64,000 bases of DNA from Shigella phage ESh28 (ON528738); one strand, 5' to 3'; positions 35,404 through 44,152 are shown, counted from the first letter of the stretch. Notes: generated from the letters alone by a model not told the origin. Numbers and translations: made by a program.

Positions 35404-35854
35404 GTTAGAGATTAGAAGCAATTTTAGATGGCCATCGTGTGCATTAAGTAATTTCGCCCAATGGCCTTTTGTTATGGATGGTATCCAATTTGGAGGTCTT
35501 GAAGGATTTCTCCAAGGATGTAAGGTGAAAAATGTTGAACAGCAACGTCGTGTATTTGGGTTATCCGGGCTTGCCGCCCAACAAGCTGGAAGGTCTTATG
35601 CTAGAGCTCAGGACCGTGGGACCCTCTTCTGGCTCGGAGTTCCGTTTTCAAGATACTCTCCAGCGTGGAAAGAATTATACACAAATGCGTATTTTGAGGC
35701 AGCGATTCAAAACAAGGGCTTTCGTGATGCATTACTAGCCTCGAAAGGAAAAGTTTTGAAGCATAGCATGGCTAGTGGTCTAACAAAAGATGATACAATA
35801 CTAACCGAAGCTGAATTTATTGATGTGTTAAACCTATTAAGAGACTCTCTATGA
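35396..35854 (+). CDS. NADAR (YbiA-like, DUF1768) family protein, 30.3 position
   Basis: 152 aa from ATG 35396; motif LSNFAQWPFVMDGIQF resembles E. coli YbiA FSNFAAWPIKVDGKTW; track start 35390 is TTG. Confidence 0.65.
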   Translation: MPELEIRSNFRWPSCALSNFAQWPFVMDGIQFGGLEGFLQGCKVKNVEQQRRVFGLSGLAAQQAGRSYARAQDRGTLFWLGVPFSRYSPAWKELYTNAYFEAAIQNKGFRDALLASKGKVLKHSMASGLTKDDTILTEAEFIDVLNLLRDSL

Positions 35855-36483
35855 AGCCTACTATTTTGACTGATATTGACGGGGTGTGTTTAAGCTGGCA
35901 ATCGGGCCTTCCTTATTTTGCCCAAAAATATAATCTTCCGTTGGAACATATTTTAAAAATGATTCAGGACGAAAAATTTATTTCTCCTGGTAAGCTCTTT
36001 AATTGCGATGAAGAACTTGGTGTTAAATTAATCGAAAAGTATAATCGTTCAGATTTTATTCGTTATTTGTCTCCATATAAAGATGCTCTATGTGTAATTA
36101 ACAAATTAAAAGAAGATTATAATTTTGTAGCTGTTACAGCATTGGGTGATTCTATTGACGCTCTGCTGAATCGTCAATTTAATTTGAATGCTCTTTTTCC
36201 TGGTGCCTTCTCAGAAGTATTGATGTGTGGTCATGATTCTTCAAAAGAAGAGTTGTTCAAAAAGGCAAAAGAGAAATATAACGTAATTTGTTATATTGAC
36301 GATCTCGCTCACCACTGCGATCACGCGAGTGAAATATTAAATGTTCCTGTTTATTGGATGGCTCGAGGAGAGCGTGACAATATTCCAAAAACTGCGCAGC
36401 GAGTTTATACATGGAATGATGTAGAGAATAAGCTTTTCCATCGAAGGAAAATAAAGAAAGTTTTGATAGTGAAAAAGTTATAA
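35851..36483 (+). CDS. HAD-superfamily hydrolase, probable 5'(3')-deoxyribonucleotidase-like (30.2 position)
   Basis: 210 aa; HAD motif I ILTDIDGV and motif IV ICYIDD; ATG overlaps upstream stop. Confidence 0.6.
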   Translation: MKPTILTDIDGVCLSWQSGLPYFAQKYNLPLEHILKMIQDEKFISPGKLFNCDEELGVKLIEKYNRSDFIRYLSPYKDALCVINKLKEDYNFVAVTALGDSIDALLNRQFNLNALFPGAFSEVLMCGHDSSKEELFKKAKEKYNVICYIDDLAHHCDHASEILNVPVYWMARGERDNIPKTAQRVYTWNDVENKLFHRRKIKKVLIVKKL

Positions 36484-36500
36484 AAGATGTAATTGAGAAG

Positions 36501-36686
36501 ATGATTAAAAACGATTCTTTTCCTTGGAACACTACCTGGAGAACTCCTGGATTTAATCCTTATAATCTATATCATCCATATCAGACGCATCCGTTTCAGA
36601 CATGGAACTATATTAAACCCGGTGGCATAGAGTATTTGTATAATAGACCTACTAGTGGTGATAATATTTTCCAAGGAGCATTCTAA
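36501..36686 (+). CDS. hypothetical protein (61 aa)
   Basis: ATG start; ORF from track. Confidence 0.35.
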   Translation: MIKNDSFPWNTTWRTPGFNPYNLYHPYQTHPFQTWNYIKPGGIEYLYNRPTSGDNIFQGAF

Positions 36687-36955
36687 TGTTTGTCGTTCAC
36701 ACTATTTATGAAAATGAAGGTAATACTACACGTGATTACGGTCACGTAAATCAATTTTTTAGATGCAATCCAGAATTTCGAGCTCAAAAAGACGAACGAA
36801 TTTTTAAAAAATGTGTAGAGCAAGGTTTCATTTACGTCAAGCACTGGATGCAAGGAAATAAAGTTAGAACCACGTACCACAAGTCTTTGACTGAGCTTAA
36901 TGATGAATTGATTTATAATAGAGCTGTAAACCAAACTCTAAAGGATGAACAATGA
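36686..36955 (+). CDS. hypothetical protein (89 aa)
   Basis: ATG with AAGGAG SD. Confidence 0.45.
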   Translation: MFVVHTIYENEGNTTRDYGHVNQFFRCNPEFRAQKDERIFKKCVEQGFIYVKHWMQGNKVRTTYHKSLTELNDELIYNRAVNQTLKDEQ

Positions 36956-38415
36956 TTCTTAAAATTCTGAACGAAATAGCATCTATTGGTTCAACTAAGC
37001 AGAAGCAAGCAATTCTTGAAAAGAATAAAGATAATGAATTGCTTAAACGAGTATATCGTCTGACTTATTCTCGTGGGTTACAGTATTATATCAAGAAATG
37101 GCCTAAACCTGGTATTGCTACCCAGAGTTTTGGAATGTTGACTCTTACCGATATGCTTGACTTCATTGAATTCACGTTAGCTACTCGGAAATTGACCGGA
37201 AATGCGGCAATTGAGGAATTAACTGGATATATTGCTGACGGTAAAAAAGATGATGTTGAAGTTTTGCGTCGGGTGATGATGCGAGACCTTGAATGCGGTG
37301 CTTCAGTATCTATTGCAAACAAAGTTTGGCCAGGTTTAATTCCTGAACAACCTCAAATGCTGGCAAGTTCTTATGATGAAAAAGGCATTAATAAGAATAT
37401 CAAATTTCCAGCATTTGCCCAATTAAAAGCTGATGGAGCTCGATGCTTTGCTGAAGTCAGAGGTGATGAATTAGATGATGTTCGTCTTTTATCACGAGCT
37501 GGTAATGAATATCTAGGATTAGATCTTCTCAAGGAAGAGTTAATCAAAATGACTGCAGAAGCTCGCCAGATTCATCCAGAAGGTGTGTTAATTGATGGCG
37601 AATTGGTATACCATGAGCAAGTTGAAAAGGAACCAGAAGGCCTAGATTTTCTTTTTGATGCTTATCCTGAAATTAGTAAAGCTAAAGAATTCGCCGAAGT
37701 AGCTGAATCACGTACTACTTCTAATGGAATCGCTAATAAATCTTTAAAGGGAACCATTTCCGAAAAAGAAGCACAATGCATGAAGTTTCAGGTCTGGGAC
37801 TATGTTCCATTAGTAGAAATATATGGTCTTCCAGCATTTCGTTTAAAATATGATGTACGTTTTTCTAAACTAGAACAAATGACATCAGGCTATGATAAAG
37901 TAATTTTAATTGAAAACCAGGTAGTAAATAACCTAGATGAAGCTAAGGTAATTTATAAAAAGTATATTGACCAAGGTCTTGAAGGTATTATTCTCAAAAA
38001 TATCGATGGATTATGGGAAAATGCTCGTTCAAAAAATCTTTATAAATTTAAAGAAGTAATTGATGTTGATTTAAAAATTGTAGGAATTTATCCTCACCGT
38101 AAAGACCCTACTAAAGCGGGTGGATTTATTCTTGAGTCAGAGTGTGGAAAAATTAAAGTAAATGCTGGTTCAGGCTTAAAAGATAAAGCTGGTGTAAAAT
38201 CGCATGAACTTGACCGTACTCGCATTATGGAAAACCAAAATTATTATATTGGAAAAATTCTAGAGTGCGAATGCAACGGTTGGTTAAAATCTGATGGCCG
38301 CACTGATTACGTTAAATTATTTCTTCCGATTGCGATTCGTTTACGTGAAGATAAAACTAAAGCTAATACATTCGAGGATGTATTTGGCGATTTTCATGAG
38401 GTAACTGGTTTATGA
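36952..38415 (+). CDS. 30: ATP-dependent DNA ligase
   Basis: 487 aa (T4 ligase length); MILKILNEIASIGSTKQKQAILEKNKDNELLK; ligase motif QLKADGARC. Confidence 0.9.
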   Translation: MILKILNEIASIGSTKQKQAILEKNKDNELLKRVYRLTYSRGLQYYIKKWPKPGIATQSFGMLTLTDMLDFIEFTLATRKLTGNAAIEELTGYIADGKKDDVEVLRRVMMRDLECGASVSIANKVWPGLIPEQPQMLASSYDEKGINKNIKFPAFAQLKADGARCFAEVRGDELDDVRLLSRAGNEYLGLDLLKEELIKMTAEARQIHPEGVLIDGELVYHEQVEKEPEGLDFLFDAYPEISKAKEFAEVAESRTTSNGIANKSLKGTISEKEAQCMKFQVWDYVPLVEIYGLPAFRLKYDVRFSKLEQMTSGYDKVILIENQVVNNLDEAKVIYKKYIDQGLEGIILKNIDGLWENARSKNLYKFKEVIDVDLKIVGIYPHRKDPTKAGGFILESECGKIKVNAGSGLKDKAGVKSHELDRTRIMENQNYYIGKILECECNGWLKSDGRTDYVKLFLPIAIRLREDKTKANTFEDVFGDFHEVTGL

Positions 38416-38600
38416 AAGCTTACTTAGAAACAATTGTCATTGCTCAAAAAGAAGGTGGAGATGTTTCTACTTCTGTATCACAAGTCATTCTCGAATTTGT
38501 AGATGCATATGCTTACAATAAATTTACAGAAACATTTGATGCCTATGAAAAAGGTCCAAAGTTTGAAATATACCGTACTCTCTTACCACTAGATTACTAA
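38412..38600 (+). CDS. hypothetical protein (62 aa)
   Basis: ATG overlapping ligase stop. Confidence 0.4.
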   Translation: MKAYLETIVIAQKEGGDVSTSVSQVILEFVDAYAYNKFTETFDAYEKGPKFEIYRTLLPLDY

Positions 38601-38616
38601 AGGCCTTCGGGCCTTT
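38599..38616 (+). terminator. UUCG-tetraloop hairpin, weak terminator
   Basis: AAAGGCC-TTCG-GGCCTTT followed by AATTTTA. Confidence 0.5.
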
Positions 38617-38621
38617 AATTT

Positions 38622-38629
38622 TATAAATA
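38622..38629 (+). promoter_or_regulatory. late promoter (TATAAATA) for alt
   Basis: Exact TATAAATA 21 nt upstream of alt ATG. Confidence 0.7.
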
Positions 38630-38649
38630 GAATAAACACTAGAGAGGAT

Positions 38650-40746
38650 ATGATGGAACTCATTACAGAATTATTTGACGAAGATACTACTCTTCCGATT
38701 ACAAACTTAAATCCAAAGAAGAAAATACCACAAATTTTTTCAGTTCATGTTGATGACGCAATTGAACAACCAGGCTTTCGTTTATGTACCTATACATCTG
38801 GAGGTGATACTAATCGCGATTTAAAGATGGGCGATAAAATGATGCATATTGTTCCTTTTACATTAACTGCTAAAGGTTCAATTGCTAAATTAAAAGGTCT
38901 TGGTCCAAGCCCAATTAATTATATCAATTCAGTTTTTACTGTTGCAATGCAAACAATGCGCCAGTATAAAATTGATGCTTGTATGCTTCGTATTCTTAAG
39001 TCTAAAACTGCTGGCCAAGCTCGACAAATTCAAGTTATTGCTGATAGACTTATCCGTAGTCGTTCAGGTGGCAGATACGTCCTTCTTAAGGAACTCTGGG
39101 ATTATGATAAAAAGTATGCATATATTCTTATACATCGCAAAAATGTATCACTAGAAGACATTCCAGGAGTTCCGGAAATTAGTACCGAGCTCTTTACTAA
39201 AGTTGAATCGAAGGTCGGTGATGTTTATATCAATAAAGATACTGGGGCTCAAGTAACTAAAAATGAGGCAATTGCAGCATCTATTGCACAAGAAAATGAT
39301 AAACGTTCTGACCAAGCTGTAATCGTTAAAGTTAAAATTTCACGTAGAGCAATTGCGCAAAGTCAATCATTGGAATCTTCTAGATTTGAAAGTGAATTAT
39401 TCCAGAAGTATGAATCTACCGCAGCTAATTTCAATAAACCTGCTACAGCTCCTTTAATTCCTGAAGCAGAAGAAATGAAGCTTGGAATTAATTCATTAGC
39501 TTCTAAAACTAAGGCAGCAAAAATTATTGCTGAAGGAACTGCAGATGAACTTCATTATGACTATAAATTCTTTTCAAAAAGTGAGGTTAATGAAGTTTCT
39601 GAAAAAATTAAAGATGTAATTCTTAATGCGATTAAAAATGAACCAACTACTTCAATAAAATGTTTAGAGAAATACGCAGCAGCTGTTAATCAATTATTTG
39701 AAGAATATAAAGATAACTGGCTTGATAAACATAATAAAACTCGTAAAGGACAGACAGATGAAGTCTGGGAAGAAATAACTAAAAATTCCTGGAACGCAGC
39801 AAAAACTAAATTCCTCAAACGAATGATTTATAGCTTTTCTGGAATTGGTGCAGGTCCAATGATTGATATTACTATTGCCCGTGATGGTTCTAAATATACT
39901 CCATCACAAAAGCGCGGCATTAGAGAGTATTGTGGTTCAGGATATACTGACATCAATAATCTTCTTTTAGGACGCTACAATCCAGAACGATATGATGTAA
40001 TGAGTGAAAAAGAAATTGAATCTGCTATAAATAACTTAGATTCAGCTTTTGAAAATGGTGACCGTATACCAGAAGGCATTACAGTTTATCGTGCTCAAAG
40101 TATGACTGCTCCTATATATGAAGCGTTAGTTAAAAATAAAGTGTTCTACTTCAGAAATTTTGTATCTACTTCTTTAACTCCTATCATTTTTGGACGTTTT
40201 GGAATCACACATGCTGGTATTGGTCTTTTAGAACCAGAAGCTCGCAATGAATTAACAGTTGATAAAAATGAAGAAGGAATAACTATTAATCCAAACGAAA
40301 TAAGAGCGTATAAAGAAAATCCTGAATACGTTAAAGTTCAAATAGGATGGGCAATTGATGGAGCTCATAAAGTTAATGTTGTATATCCAGGAAGTCTCGG
40401 AATAGCAACAGAAGCTGAAGTTATTCTACCGCGTGGATTGATGGTCAAAGTTAATAAAATAACTGATGCTTCTAATAATGACGGAACAACATCTAATAAT
40501 ACAAAACTCATTCAAGCTGAAGTTATGACCACGGAAGAGCTCACCGAATCGGTAATCTATGACGGAGACCATTTAATGGAAACCGGTGAAGTAGTTGCAA
40601 TGACAGGTGATATTGAAATAGACGACAGAGTTGACTTTGCATCATTTGTTTCATCAAATGTTAAACAGAAAGTAGAATCATCTCTTGGAATTATTGCGTC
40701 TTGCATAGATATTACAAACATGCCTTACAAGTTCGTTCAAGGATAA
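38650..40746 (+). CDS. alt: Alt ADP-ribosyltransferase (virion-packaged; modifies host RNA polymerase)
   Basis: 698 aa; ART-like R-S-E elements (YRAQ, FVSTSL, EAEVILPRG); late promoter TATAAATA 28 nt upstream. Confidence 0.8.
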   Translation: MMELITELFDEDTTLPITNLNPKKKIPQIFSVHVDDAIEQPGFRLCTYTSGGDTNRDLKMGDKMMHIVPFTLTAKGSIAKLKGLGPSPINYINSVFTVAMQTMRQYKIDACMLRILKSKTAGQARQIQVIADRLIRSRSGGRYVLLKELWDYDKKYAYILIHRKNVSLEDIPGVPEISTELFTKVESKVGDVYINKDTGAQVTKNEAIAASIAQENDKRSDQAVIVKVKISRRAIAQSQSLESSRFESELFQKYESTAANFNKPATAPLIPEAEEMKLGINSLASKTKAAKIIAEGTADELHYDYKFFSKSEVNEVSEKIKDVILNAIKNEPTTSIKCLEKYAAAVNQLFEEYKDNWLDKHNKTRKGQTDEVWEEITKNSWNAAKTKFLKRMIYSFSGIGAGPMIDITIARDGSKYTPSQKRGIREYCGSGYTDINNLLLGRYNPERYDVMSEKEIESAINNLDSAFENGDRIPEGITVYRAQSMTAPIYEALVKNKVFYFRNFVSTSLTPIIFGRFGITHAGIGLLEPEARNELTVDKNEEGITINPNEIRAYKENPEYVKVQIGWAIDGAHKVNVVYPGSLGIATEAEVILPRGLMVKVNKITDASNNDGTTSNNTKLIQAEVMTTEELTESVIYDGDHLMETGEVVAMTGDIEIDDRVDFASFVSSNVKQKVESSLGIIASCIDITNMPYKFVQG

Positions 40747-40749
40747 ATC

Positions 40750-42807
40750 ATGGAACTTATTACAGAATTATTTGACGGCGCTTCGGCGCCGGTTGTTAAC
40801 TTAAATCCTAAGCATAAAATACCACAAATTTTTGCTATTCAAGCCGGTGAAGAAAGCGTTCTTCCTGGATTTAGATTTTGTACATACACCTCTGGCGGTG
40901 ATACGAATAAAAACGTTAAGCCAGGCGACAAAATGATGCATATCGTAATGATAGGTGTTAATGAAAAATTATCATTAGTTAAGCTTAAAAACTTGGGTGG
41001 AAATCCAATTGGCGTCATTAATGCTGTTTTTGATACTGCTCTTCAAACAATGAAACAGTATAAAATTGATGCATGCCTATTCCGCGTACTAAAAAGTAAA
41101 ACAAATGGCGCTGCTCGTCAAATGCAAGTTATTGCTGACCGTTTAGTACGTACTAAAGGAGCAGGTCGATATGTTCTTTTAAAGGAAATCTGGGACTATG
41201 ATAAGAAATATGCATATATTATGGTTTACCGTAAAAATGCCAATTTAGAAGACATTCCAGGTGTACCTCCTATTTCAACTGAGTTATTCACAAAAGTTGA
41301 ATCGAAAGTCGGTGATGTTTATGTAGATGTTAAAACAGGTAATGCTGTTCCTAAAGCTGTTGCTGTTGCTGCTTCTATTGCTTTAGAAAATGATAAGCGC
41401 ACGGACCAAGCTGTTATTCAGAAAACTAAAATTAGTCGTCGATTAGCAGCACAAGCTCAATATTCTACTGTTGATGCTTCACTTCAGGGTGATAGCTTCG
41501 CTGCTAAGAAATATCAAGAGTTTGAATCTAAAGTTCCGGTGTATAAAGCAGAAGGACCAATGAACTCTGGCGTTATTCAAATTGGTTCAAACTTCAGCAA
41601 AGGAGCTATAGGCGGTATGAGAAGCGCTTCTCGTTTTAAATCTAGTGATTATGAACTCGAAAGCTTCCGAAATCATATTGCATTAGCCCATGCACGTTTA
41701 CGTGATCCATCTATCAAGTTACAGAGCGATATAACATATCAAGGTTCTCAAGAATATTTAAAGAATAAAGAATTCTTTGATTATAAGACTGATAAAATTT
41801 TAAGCGATCTTGCTGATATTAATATTTCTAATAGCTTTGATGTTATTAAGAAAATTATCAATGATTTGGTTAAAGGTTCTAAAGCTACGCCAGATGAAAA
41901 GACAGCTATTATTCAATTTGTCATGAATGGCATTTATAAATTGATTAATGAATCTGCTGCTCAGGCATATGAATACGCAAGCACTGAAGTAACTCCAAAA
42001 GGATTAACTCAAGCTGAATCTGATGTAATTGAAGATTATTGTGCAGATTCATATGTTGAAATGAACTCGTTCCTTTTGGGTAAACCAGATTCTACCCGTG
42101 AAGAATATATGGAACGAGCTATTAAACATATTGAGACGCTTGATTCTGCATTCGCTAAAGGTTCAGTTCTTCCTCCAGGAACTACACTTTACCGTGGACA
42201 AGAAGTTACCTTTAAAACTTTGCGTCATAACATTGAAAATAAAATGTTCTATTTCAAGAACTTCGTATCGACATCACTTAAACCAAATATATTCGGTGAG
42301 CATGGTAAAAACTATATGGCTCTAGATGATTCCGGCGCAGTATTTTCTGGCGAAGGAGAAGGTTCTGTTGATGCAGAAGATTTGATGCATATGGGTAGTC
42401 ATTCTACATATGCTAATGAAGATGCTGAAACTAGCGTGGGTATGGTAATTAAAGGAGCTGAGCGAATTAAAGTTATCGTTCCGGGTCATTTATCAGGATT
42501 TCCATCAGAAGCTGAAGTTATTCTACCGCGTGGAATTTTACTGAAGATTAATAAAGTAAGTACTTACTTTATGAAAGAAACTGCTTATAACAAGTATCTA
42601 ATCGAAGGTACAATCGTTCCTCCTTCTGAACAATTAGAGGAATCAGTATATGATGGCGACCATCTAATGGAAACTGGTGAAGTTCGTCCAATGACTGGAT
42701 TTAATCAATTCCTTGTCGAAGAATCAAAAGAAGAGGAAAACGAAGTTTCTCAAATCTTAGCTTCTTTGGTTAACATTAACGGAATGTCTAAAAAGTTCAA
42801 AATGTAG
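40750..42807 (+). CDS. Alt-like ADP-ribosyltransferase paralogue (second tandem copy)
   Basis: 685 aa; N-terminal ~230 aa roughly two-thirds identical to upstream Alt by eye; diverged middle; same ART elements (YRGQ, FVSTSL, EAEVILPRG). Confidence 0.75.
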   Translation: MELITELFDGASAPVVNLNPKHKIPQIFAIQAGEESVLPGFRFCTYTSGGDTNKNVKPGDKMMHIVMIGVNEKLSLVKLKNLGGNPIGVINAVFDTALQTMKQYKIDACLFRVLKSKTNGAARQMQVIADRLVRTKGAGRYVLLKEIWDYDKKYAYIMVYRKNANLEDIPGVPPISTELFTKVESKVGDVYVDVKTGNAVPKAVAVAASIALENDKRTDQAVIQKTKISRRLAAQAQYSTVDASLQGDSFAAKKYQEFESKVPVYKAEGPMNSGVIQIGSNFSKGAIGGMRSASRFKSSDYELESFRNHIALAHARLRDPSIKLQSDITYQGSQEYLKNKEFFDYKTDKILSDLADINISNSFDVIKKIINDLVKGSKATPDEKTAIIQFVMNGIYKLINESAAQAYEYASTEVTPKGLTQAESDVIEDYCADSYVEMNSFLLGKPDSTREEYMERAIKHIETLDSAFAKGSVLPPGTTLYRGQEVTFKTLRHNIENKMFYFKNFVSTSLKPNIFGEHGKNYMALDDSGAVFSGEGEGSVDAEDLMHMGSHSTYANEDAETSVGMVIKGAERIKVIVPGHLSGFPSEAEVILPRGILLKINKVSTYFMKETAYNKYLIEGTIVPPSEQLEESVYDGDHLMETGEVRPMTGFNQFLVEESKEEENEVSQILASLVNINGMSKKFKM

Positions 42808-42862
42808 TTTACAAGTCCCTCATGTTGTGTTATAGTAGTCTTACTGACATAACATGAGGAAC
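42807..42862 (+). promoter_or_regulatory. early-type promoter embedded in an SD-sequestering hairpin (copy B, near-identical to 27008-27063)
   Basis: GTTTAC 42807-42812; TATAGT 42831-42836; inverted repeat CCTCATGTT(42818-26)/AACATGAGG(42851-59) includes SD GAGGA. Confidence 0.5.
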
Positions 42863-42867
42863 ACAAA

Positions 42868-43158
42868 ATGAAATCTTCTTTGCGCTTTTTAGGTCAAGAA
42901 CTCGTCGTTGAAGGCGTTATTCCCGCTGATAACGCTTTCAATGAAGCAGTTTACGATGAATTTATCAAAATTTTTGGAACAGATAAAAAGTTCGGAATTT
43001 TTCCTTCTGAAAATTTTTCAAAGCCAGAACAGACTGAAAGTATTTTTCAGGGTGTAGTAACAGGTAAATTTGAGTCAGAAGCTCCGGTAAAAATTGAGGT
43101 TTATATTGAAGAAACCTCTGTTGCTTCAGTTGCTGCTTTTATTTCATTCCGTAAATAA
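42868..43158 (+). CDS. hypothetical protein (96 aa)
   Basis: ATG with GAGGA SD; preceded by promoter-in-hairpin element. Confidence 0.45.
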   Translation: MKSSLRFLGQELVVEGVIPADNAFNEAVYDEFIKIFGTDKKFGIFPSENFSKPEQTESIFQGVVTGKFESEAPVKIEVYIEETSVASVAAFISFRK

Positions 43159-43162
43159 AAAC

Positions 43163-43184
43163 ATGGGGACCTTTCGGTCCCCAT
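43163..43184. terminator. bidirectional terminator between convergent ORF 42868-43158 and gene 54
   Basis: ATGGGGACC-TTTC-GGTCCCCAT perfect 9-bp stem. Confidence 0.6.
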
Positions 43185-43186
43185 TG

Positions 43187-44152
43187 TTATATTGCTCCTA
43201 ATATTTTACTTTGCGAGTTGACAATTCCTGTCATAGTATTAATATTTGAAATGCTTCCTGCAGTTCCCCCTAATCTACTAAGTCGTGAAAGCGAATTAGA
43301 TAGTCCAGTAACACCTCCACTATTTCCGAGAACGCTTTGAATACCATTTATAGTAGCAGATTCAAGCCATTCAAGGGCAGCTTGTCTATCAACTGCTCCA
43401 GCCTGCATGACTCTATAAGCGAAAGTAACATCAAATGTAGTTATTTGGTTATCTCCATCATATGATAACTCAGGAGCACTCACAGATATTGGAATACAGC
43501 CAGTGAACATCACCGCAGTATGTGGTAATCCATTGCGAGAATGAAGATTAACCTGAATATCTGCCTCGACATCTTGTGGTAAAGCACGCAATCCAGTTAC
43601 TGGGTCTTGAACAGCGTTAACCCAGTCTTGCATTGCACGATAGTTACAAGCTTCTGAATCCATTCTAAATGAAATAACCAAAGGGTCTAATTCTCTCCCA
43701 GTTATACGAATATTAGGAGAGTTGTAGTTCCAGTCAGTTTCATAGGATAATCTATTCTCTGGCATTTTTACAGAGTATATCATCAATCCAGATGAGTTAT
43801 ATGCCATGTTAAAGAAGTCAATTAAATATGTACCAACTGTAAATGAGCCTAATAAACTTTGAACTGTACGTTGACTCATGGCACCAATAAGATATTTACT
43901 AACCCCTGATTTTCTTATCAGTTTTTGTGTGCCAGCTGTAATTAGCGTGGTAATTCCCTGATTAATATCACCTTGAGTTAATCCTAGCCAATCTGAACTT
44001 AGGCCCAAGTTATTATAAGAAAAGTTGCTAATTGAACTTATCAACGAAGAGCTTTTAGTTGATGGAGTTGTTGCAAAAACGCAGCTAAACATATTATTAC
44101 GTTGGAAATCTGCGTTTATTGCTTGATTATTAAATTCCTCTAAAGAATACAT
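43187..44152 (-). CDS. 54: gp54 baseplate tail-tube initiator
   Basis: 321 aa; synteny 54-48-29; recalled T4 gp54. Confidence 0.85.
   Translation of the reverse strand: MYSLEEFNNQAINADFQRNNMFSCVFATTPSTKSSSLISSISNFSYNNLGLSSDWLGLTQGDINQGITTLITAGTQKLIRKSGVSKYLIGAMSQRTVQSLLGSFTVGTYLIDFFNMAYNSSGLMIYSVKMPENRLSYETDWNYNSPNIRITGRELDPLVISFRMDSEACNYRAMQDWVNAVQDPVTGLRALPQDVEADIQVNLHSRNGLPHTAVMFTGCIPISVSAPELSYDGDNQITTFDVTFAYRVMQAGAVDRQAALEWLESATINGIQSVLGNSGGVTGLSNSLSRLSRLGGTAGSISNINTMTGIVNSQSKILGAI

Follow-up and report, generated by a model that had tools for sequence, protein, structure and literature searches.

The common two-gene alt locus of T4-like phages: tandem, modular genes for predicted Alt-family ADP-ribosyltransferases

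Introduction

The closest described system is the alt gene of bacteriophage T4. Its product (gpAlt, NP_049811) is an NAD+:arginine ADP-ribosyltransferase packaged in the head, where 40 copies are found, and it undergoes cleavage at two sites, ITE-6 and LTE-619 (PMC5694885, PMC9026906). Duplication of alt is already in print (PMC1524935, PMC4177764), and a note in the T4 GenBank record describes two small open reading frames (ORFs), alt.-1 and alt.-2, as remnants of an alt duplication. T4 ModA and ModB are R-S-E ADP-ribosyltransferases (ARTs) from the same phage group (PMC5512222). Both differ from Alt in being small (~200 aa), early-expressed, unpackaged and encoded elsewhere in the genome. 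Outside phages, the C3, VIP2, iota, CDTa, Vis and Certhrax toxins resemble Alt proteins in how the last ~250 residues fold and in their R, STS and ExE motifs. An E-x-E motif together with a C3/VIP2-like fold is a hallmark of arginine-specific protein ARTs. Here we describe the alt locus in a 64,000-nucleotide stretch of Shigella phage ESh28 (ON528738), which we call the window, and compare it with these systems.

Results

This region corresponds to the alt locus of a T4-like phage (Tequatrovirus) with the two genes commonly present there, alt and then alt.-2 (Alt2), here called copy 1 and copy 2 (Table 1). Both tandem ORFs are intact: copy 1 runs over 38650..40746 (698 aa when counted from its first ATG) and copy 2 over 40750..42807 (685 aa); they lie between gene 30/alt.1 and alt.-3/gene 54 and are preceded by a late promoter consensus. 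In T4, too, the locus is flanked by alt.1 and alt.-3, and it shares the late promoter and the hairpin before it. With DNA ~97% identical to that of known two-copy relatives, the window phage is one more isolate.

Table 1. Positions of genes, domains and signals at the alt locus, numbered from the first nucleotide of the window.
Feature	Position	Strand	Remarks
DNA ligase gene 30	36952..38415		Precedes alt.1
alt.1 homolog	38412..38600	+	62-aa ORF, upstream neighbour; position as T4 alt.1; Pfam PF24647 (1.9e-29); phrog_1976
Terminator-like hairpin	38598..38617	+	TAAAGGCCTTCGGGCCTTTA then T-run; would end upstream early transcription before alt
Predicted late promoter of the alt operon	38622..38629	+	T4-type consensus TATAAATA; function presumed from the consensus
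Copy 1 (alt)	38653..40746	+	697 aa from MELITE; ORF opens at 38650
Copy 1 N-terminal domain, aa 1-238	38653..39366	+	100% identical to T4 Alt
Copy 1 ITE-6 gp21 site motif	38668..38670	+	E6 codon
Copy 1 ART domain	39898..40527	+	R480 (40090-40092), S505-T-S507 (40165-40173), E587-x-E589 (40411-40419)
Copy 1 tail	40528..40743	+	LTE-632 site motif (E632 codon 40546-40548), aligned to the published T4 LTE-619 cleavage site
Copy 2 Shine-Dalgarno	40739..40743	+	AAGGA, within last codons (Q-G) of copy 1
Copy 2 (alt.-2/Alt2)	40750..42807	+	685 aa; class III; last gene of the array
Copy 2 N-terminal domain, aa 1-238	40750..41463	+	68% identical to copy 1 and T4 N-domain
Copy 2 ITE-6 motif	40765..40767	+	E6 codon
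Copy 2 middle region, aa 239-415	41464..41994	+	All-helical, class-specific; model pLDDT 80-92
Copy 2 ART domain	41995..42624	+	R482 (42193-42195), S507-T-S509 (42268-42276), E587-x-E589 (42508-42516)
Copy 2 tail	42625..42804	+	LEE-631 site motif (E631 codon 42640-42642); ends KFKM
Predicted sigma-70/T4-early-like promoter before alt.-3	42808..42836	+	TTTACA-17-TATAGT with TG; consensus match only
Stable RNA hairpin	42815..42862	+	Buries alt.-3 Shine-Dalgarno GAGG (42856-42859)
alt.-3	42868..43158	+	96 aa; DUF5498; final gene before convergent baseplate genes 54 and 48
Bidirectional terminator hairpin	43163..43184	.	Between alt.-3 and gene 54; annotated terminator at same place in phage DalCa
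Gene 54	43187..44152	minus

The two proteins are 42% identical by BLASTP (E = 2e-160, far above chance), and both contain the Pfam domain PF03496, ADPrib_exo_Tox (1.5e-37 for copy 1 and 5.8e-20 for copy 2), and match phrog_802 ("Alt-like RNA polymerase ADP-ribosyltransferase") over the full length of both copies (6e-257 and 9e-273). By region, identity between them is 68% in residues 1-238, where both have the Alt-specific N-terminal domain of ~240 aa, 13% in residues 239-415, 36% in the ART domain and 44% in the tail. The initial annotation of two adjacent, diverged Alt genes with a shared N-terminus, strongly different centres and the elements Y-R, FVSTSL and EAEVILPRG in both copies is borne out by these comparisons, and its statement that T4 has a single alt of 682 aa was right. 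Both copies also match T4 Alt by BLASTP (E = 0 and 2e-158, respectively), whereas ModA and ModB, which had been proposed for comparison as well, showed no BLASTP similarity to either (best E = 1.0 over 22 residues). The R, S-T-S and E-x-E elements were invariant in all 14 aligned copies, including the catalytic arginine and glutamates of copy 2, and nearly invariant among 61 family representatives. The two gp21 protease site motifs align as (I/L)xE in every aligned copy, copy 2 included; such motifs are short, and their conservation could have other reasons.

Copy 1 had been taken as the equivalent of T4 Alt, an assumption that does not hold along its length. Its DNA identity to T4 is 96-100% for nt 1-700, drops to 34-79% for nt 720-1800 and rises again to 87-99% beyond nt 1850, and the protein is 65% identical to T4 Alt in the ART domain, 33% in the middle region and 94% in the tail. 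The ART domain is 94-95% (protein) and 78-93% (DNA) identical to that of the first Alt copies of Dhakavirus. Judged from these alignments, copy 1 is a chimera: its N-domain is that of T4 Alt, its middle and ART module belongs to class II, and its tail is T4-like. The stretch after LTE-632 is a predicted 65-aa C-propeptide with the invariant motif YDGDHLMETGE (40558-40590).

Copy 2 is 38% identical to T4 Alt in the ART domain and 12% in the middle region, and its ART domain is 36-38% identical to those of the other ART classes; its middle region is 46% identical to that of the Dhakavirus third copies. The AlphaFold2 (AF2) model of its N-domain has a pLDDT of 85 and a pTM of 0.84, and after LEE-631 a 54-aa C-propeptide is predicted (model pLDDT <50), again with YDGDHLMETGE (42649-42681). 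Neither a PDB sequence search with copy 2 nor NCBIfam gave a match. With the model of copy 2 (pLDDT 76), a Foldseek search of the PDB gave 64 matches at E ≤1e-3 and retrieved Vis, C3 (C3bot), Certhrax, CDTa and VIP2, with probability 1.00 and target TM-scores up to 0.71 (Vis, 4xzk: E = 6e-8, TM-score 0.69).

Several signals place both genes in what appears to be one late operon. The TATAAATA consensus upstream of alt, read as a late promoter from the start, has an identical position in T4, RB32, Bas39 and DalCa, and the hairpin before it is kept in T4, RB32, DalCa, Bp7 and AnYang; a terminator upstream of alt was described as conserved in five of six T4-like genomes (PMC1524935). The spacing of the copy 1 Shine-Dalgarno, GAGG at 38644-38647, favours the second ATG, at 38653, and hence the 697-aa product beginning MELITE, as annotated in RB32. 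The stop codon of copy 1 (TAA, 40744-40746) is separated from the ATG of copy 2 by only 3 nt, in agreement with the initial annotation, and all junctions within the Tequatrovirus and Dhakavirus arrays have this design, CAAGGRTAAATNATG. The proposed co-expression from one late promoter is supported at the level of consensus sequences. The statement that copy 2 has no promoter is correct for the region immediately upstream, but a second TATAAATA lies within copy 1 (40026-40033), 724 nt upstream of copy 2. We considered this internal match as a copy 2 promoter and rejected it as probably coincidental: only near-identical alleles keep it, and neither the class II alleles of Dhakavirus nor those of T4 have it. 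Farther downstream, the RNA hairpin at the start of alt.-3 has a predicted energy of -23.4 kcal/mol (z = -5.08), and none of 200 shuffles folded as well.

The initial annotation had implied that the pair might be novel, which is not the case, as close relatives (T2, T6 and RB32) carry both full-length genes. In a megablast search, 336 phage records aligned to 80% or more of the 4.8-kb region, and the variable region of copy 2 occurs at ≥95% identity in ~300-400 records, T2 and T6 among them. Annotated examples of the pair come from RB32, T2, T6, six BASEL Tequatroviruses, DalCa, SH7 and others, where the genes are variously named alt and alt.-2, Alt and Alt2, alt and alt', or "Alt-like (x2)". 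The copy 2 orthologs, that is RB32 alt.-2, BASEL "Alt2" and the second Alt-like gene of T2, T6, DalCa and SH7, share 98-100% protein identity in every region and are alike in position and junction, with nothing of substance to tell them apart. The tandem arrangement of Alt and Alt2 is thus the known, usual and annotated state among T4 relatives.

T4 is exceptional among its relatives because most of its second gene has been deleted. Its small ORFs alt.-1 and alt.-2 correspond to two successive blocks of ~55 codons at the start of copy 2 (matching phrog_23015 and phrog_15247); a frameshift and an internal deletion of ~1.69 kb have broken the gene, whose last codons, KKFKM*, persist out of frame. 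This deletion is shared by 91 of 502 matching records (T4 and 90 others). On these sequence comparisons, the single-alt locus of T4 is a derived state.

Tandem Alt arrays at the same locus and with the same junction design are also found in Dhakavirus (alt and alt' in Bp7; three copies in AnYang and ABTNLS3), where the class II ART is the near-identical counterpart of that of copy 1 and a class III gene, with 58% ART identity to copy 2, is likewise terminal. These arrays differ from that of the window in having N-domains only 41-47% identical to those described here and a copy number of two to three, in carrying a T4-type class I module in second position (Bp7), and in including a fourth class, AnYang_2, that is absent from the window. 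The alt genes are modular: the N-domain tracks phage genus and array position, and the middle/ART modules, of which at least four classes can be told apart, cut across genera. It is this modularity that our analysis adds to the known tandem arrangement.

Copy 2 might instead be a redundant or decaying duplicate that has no function of its own and is heading for a T4-like remnant; T4 and the 90 other records have lost most of the gene and remain viable, and T4 alt is itself non-essential (PMC5694885). Against five orthologs, however, copy 2 had dN/dS values of 0.017-0.033 in every gene region (45-60 synonymous versus 3-8 nonsynonymous differences), so that by this measure it is clearly under purifying selection and hence a functional gene. 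All of its catalytic residues are intact, it is undamaged in the ~300-400 records mentioned above, and its cluster at 99% identity has 772 members. Because the class III ortholog occupies the terminal position in Dhakavirus arrays, the gene has been kept since before the genera split. Decay is, in our judgement, a very improbable account of copy 2.

Discussion

We interpret the locus as a two-gene operon for two ~77-kDa mono-ADP-ribosyltransferases of the Alt family that would be made late, packaged, trimmed by gp21 and injected, each with its own targets, and we put the probability of this reading at roughly 80%. Each protein has four parts, namely the ~240-aa Alt-specific N-domain, a helical middle, an ART domain of the C3/VIP2 type with R-S-ExE residues and a predicted C-terminal propeptide. 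A single late transcript would start at TATAAATA (38622), span both genes and end at the 43163-43184 terminator; translation of copy 2 would begin from a separate ribosome-binding site located in the final codons of copy 1. Both proteins would then enter the prohead core, as T4 Alt does, be cut by gp21 after Glu6 and after the LxE near residue 631/632, stay in the head and enter the next cell together with the DNA. There, each would modify arginines of a different group of host proteins by ADP-ribosylation; the middle region, which differs between classes, and loops in the ART domain would presumably determine specificity. T4 Alt modifies Arg265 of E. coli RNAP alpha and other host proteins; because the catalytic modules differ from that of T4 Alt, such targets are not simply transferable to either protein and may differ.

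The initial annotation suggested that copy 2, if packaged, may act on a different host protein; both its packaging and a separate target are plausible from its sequence features. It could also be an active ART that is not packaged and acts late in the producing cell, much as ModA and ModB act after synthesis. In LC-MS/MS of SH7 virions the first copy (SH7_0189) was detected and the second (SH7_0188) was not, and copy 2 ends in KFKM, not the KFVQG shared by copy 1 and T4 Alt, with a tail 44% identical to that of copy 1. The SH7 dataset is, however, too shallow for a negative to be meaningful (13 proteins in total, with 3% coverage of the first copy), and copy 2 keeps the Alt N-domain (68%), ITE-6, the LxE and the invariant YDGDxLMETGE propeptide motif, sits in a predicted late operon adjoining baseplate genes and lacks similarity to ModA or ModB. 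We consider absence from the head unlikely. The "ADP-ribosylase" of SH7 virions was itself considered as a candidate for copy 2, but the SH7 record shows it to be the first copy; the literature searched on Alt2, on virion proteomes containing two Alt proteins and on the AR1 proteome yielded nothing usable on copy 2.

A third account would make copy 2 something other than a functional Alt, modifying a non-arginine target such as nucleic acid, or acting by RNAylation as reported for ModB. The E-x-E motif and C3/VIP2-like fold are those typical of arginine-specific protein ARTs, and the nearest relatives of copy 2 all belong to the Alt family, which together make a switch of this kind scarcely credible even with a middle region unrelated to that of copy 1 (13% identity), an ART domain only 36-38% identical to other classes and the known ability of ARTs in this superfamily to change substrate class (PMC9503650).

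The two-gene arrangement is routine annotation, and its value is as a pointer. Nearly all knowledge of injected phage ARTs comes from T4, whose locus is atypical in having a single gene from a single class. In most relatives another Alt allele and a second, strongly conserved enzyme are encoded, if not injected as well. T4 Alt, but not Bas37 Alt (bas37_0033), is reported to restore growth against Mokosh type I (preprint 10.1101/2025.11.20.689424). Because the T4 locus is atypical and Alt alleles are reportedly not interchangeable against Mokosh (the same 2025 preprint), it is reasonable to look to Alt2 and to the other ART classes for candidate functions in host takeover or anti-defence that work on T4 could not reveal. 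A broader and more tentative proposal, to which we would give somewhat less than even odds, is that the T-even alt locus is a recombining cassette array, in which the genus-specific N-terminal head-packaging module and the conserved C-propeptide serve as homology arms and at least four middle/ART classes are shuffled, even between genera. On the same proposal, Alt2, of class III, would be another effector that is injected and has a separate target in the host or its defences, one that escaped notice since T4 deleted the gene.

In polymorphic toxin and polyvalent injected-effector systems, one conserved N-terminal delivery module is combined with many unrelated C-terminal effectors, whereas Alt varies by ART class and not by toxin type. 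We accordingly examined and rejected the N-domain as a general delivery module for many effector types: an exhaustive phmmer search returned Alt-like proteins only, with 69 representatives in which the domain was N-terminal in every case and was coupled to an ART in 57 of 61, with no other Pfam family. Only remote BFVD Foldseek matches of the N-domain fold to proteins annotated as Zeta toxin, ParB/Srx and deaminase suggest that the fold may be used more widely than in Alt.

Results

The initial annotation of this region had described two adjacent ORFs as Alt-family ADP-ribosyltransferases (ARTs), and all of the features it reported are present. Copy 1 (alt) and copy 2 (alt.-2 or Alt2) align over their full length at 42% identity (BLASTP, E = 2e-160), and both contain the Pfam ADPrib_exo_Tox domain (1.5e-37 and 5.8e-20, respectively). 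Identity falls from 68% in the N-domain (residues 1-238) to 13% in the middle region (239-415); the ART domain and the tail stand at 36% and 44%. Of the two ATGs at the start of copy 1, the second (38653) lies at the better distance from the Shine-Dalgarno GAGG (38644-38647); it is also the start used in the RB32 annotation and gives a protein of 697 aa beginning MELITE. The locus is the alt locus of T4. The window belongs to a Tequatrovirus: many sequenced isolates share ∼95-97% identity with it, and none in the phage collection matches it exactly. Pfam assigns the small adjacent alt.1 homolog to PF24647, "Phage blade protein" (1.9e-29). Neither tRNA genes nor Rfam families at gathering score were found within the 64-kb window (1-64000).

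Features of the alt locus and its surroundings
Feature	Position	Strand	Remark
DNA ligase gene 30	36952..38415		neighbor
alt.1	38412..38600		neighbor
Terminator-like hairpin	38598-38617		conserved in T4 and relatives
Late-promoter consensus TATAAATA	38622-38629		3' of the hairpin; conserved in T4 and relatives
Copy 1 ORF	38650..40746	+	698 aa
Second TATAAATA	40026-40033	+	within copy 1 (codons A-I-N-N); copy 2 begins 724 nt downstream
Copy 2 ORF	40750..42807	+	685 aa
alt.-3	42868..43158		neighbor
Bidirectional terminator	43163-43184
Baseplate genes 54 and 48			neighbors, convergent

Only 3 nt separate the copy 1 stop codon from the copy 2 start, and the Shine-Dalgarno AAGGA of copy 2 is made by the last codons of copy 1. 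The junction CAAGGRTAAATNATG recurs at every boundary of two- and three-gene arrays in both Tequatrovirus and Dhakavirus. Because of these consensus elements (the hairpin, TATAAATA, the junction, and the terminator), we infer a late bicistronic transcript of the two copies, which supports the originally proposed late co-expression of two Alt-family ARTs. In the Dhakaviruses AnYang (L006, 150-6410) and ABTNLS3 (L008, 1-5967), three tandem full-length Alt-like genes share identical inter-gene junctions; the promoter box upstream of them is CATAAATA rather than TATAAATA.

Downstream (window 42808-42870), alt.-3 has its own sigma-70/T4-early-like promoter (TTTACA-17-TATAGT), and a strong hairpin at 42815-42862 (-23.4 kcal/mol, z = -5.1) buries its Shine-Dalgarno. 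Timing of transcription may control alt.-3 translation, as suggested by the fact that an early-promoter transcript would lack the 5' arm of this hairpin and a late transcript reading through from the alt promoter would include it.

Selection and motifs mark copy 2 as functional. Its differences from five orthologs are 45-60 synonymous against 3-8 nonsynonymous (dN/dS 0.017-0.033, low across every gene region), and the catalytic Arg (R482), S-T-S (507-509), and E-x-E (587/589) are intact. In its AlphaFold model (pLDDT 76), the N-domain is alpha/beta, the middle is helical and confidently predicted, the ART core is rich in beta structure, and the tail has low confidence; the ART part matches Vis, C3, Certhrax, CDTa, and VIP2 (Foldseek). 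Comparison of both copies with T4 ModA and ModB revealed no resemblance.

The modeled N-domain fold of copy 2 (window 40750-41469) recurs in large uncharacterized phage proteins (BFVD, Foldseek E 1e-7 to 1e-3), some annotated as Zeta toxin, ParB/sulfiredoxin, or cytidine deaminase, from phages of Erwinia, Dickeya, Shigella, Vibrio, and Agrobacterium. This recurrence hints at a shared head-delivery module beyond the reach of sequence searches.

T4 Alt is packaged at ∼40 copies per head and is cut by the gp21 protease at ITE-6 and LTE-619, freeing a 63-residue C-propeptide (PMC5694885, PMC9026906). Both positions hold an (I/L)xE motif in each of 14 aligned proteins (MELITE| and QLEE|SVYDGD in copy 2), and the propeptide contains an invariant YDGDxLMETGE motif; this supports, without proving, packaging and processing of copy 2. 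The sole virion proteomics dataset found for a two-copy phage, that of SH7, contains the first copy (3% coverage) and lacks the second; with just 13 proteins identified in total, this is weak negative evidence on packaging.

Upstream of the locus, gene 30.2 (window 35851-36686) has a frameshift when compared with T4 and DalCa: residues 1-209 of T4 gp30.2 align in one frame and 196-278 in another, and the resulting ORFs are 210 aa and 61 aa long. Either the gene is a true pseudogene or the A-rich stretch near 36440-36470 contains an indel error.

Discussion

The tandem pair is not novel, as the arrangement is already known and widely annotated. By megablast, 545 phage records match region 38400-43200, 336 of them covering at least 80% of the query. 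The variable region of copy 2 is at least 95% identical in ∼300 records; ∼100 further records fall in a lower identity band that arises at least partly from merging of both copies into one match. T2 and T6 both carry the region. The pair is named alt and alt.-2 ("similar to alt") in RB32, Alt and Alt2 in six BASEL phages, alt and alt' in Bp7, and "Alt-like RNA polymerase ADP-ribosyltransferase (x2)" in RefSeq. Nolan et al. 2006 (PMC1524935) and Jin et al. 2014 (PMC4177764) mention the duplication, as does the GenBank record of T4 in its note to alt.-1 and alt.-2. At this site, Dhakaviruses have tandem arrays of two or three genes. What remains of interest is the function of the uncharacterized Alt2 and the modular exchange of ART classes.

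It is T4 that represents the derived state. Its alt.-1 corresponds to copy 2 codons 1 to ∼55, followed by a frameshift, and its alt.-2 to codons 62 to ∼116. Beyond that point, T4 retains just the closing codons of copy 2 (KKFKM*, out of frame in T4), and it has therefore lost ∼1.69 kb internal to a once full-length gene. The T4-type deletion occurs in only 91 of 502 matching records, many of them T4 stocks.

The modularity of the middle and ART regions is what the present analysis adds. The N-domain tracks genus and array position, being mutually 100% identical in copy 1, T4, and DalCa, 68% identical between copies 1 and 2, and 41-47% identical between Tequatrovirus and Dhakavirus, whereas the middle and ART regions sort into classes that cross genera: class I (T4 alt, the first DalCa copy, and Bp7 alt'), class II (copy 1, RB32 alt, Bp7 alt, AnYang_1, and ABTN_2), class III (copy 2, alt.-2/Alt2, AnYang_3, and ABTN_3; always last in the array and ending KFKM), and class IV (AnYang_2). 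In DNA, copy 1 and T4 are 96-100% identical over nt 1-700, drop to 34-79% over nt 720-1800, and return to 87-99% beyond nt 1850. Copy 1 and Bp7 alt share 78-93% across the ART module (nt 1216-1850), against 40-76% in the N-terminal and middle regions and 51-59% in the tail. Judged by these profiles, copy 1 is a chimera, and T4's own catalytic module is carried by neither window gene. Such module differences would fit a 2025 preprint (10.1101/2025.11.20.689424), which reports that growth against the Mokosh type I defense is restored by T4 Alt and not by the Alt of Tequatrovirus Bas37 (bas37_0033). The second TATAAATA, within copy 1, is probably coincidental; all 5 near-identical Tequatrovirus class II alleles share it, and it is absent from Dhakavirus class II and T4-type alleles.
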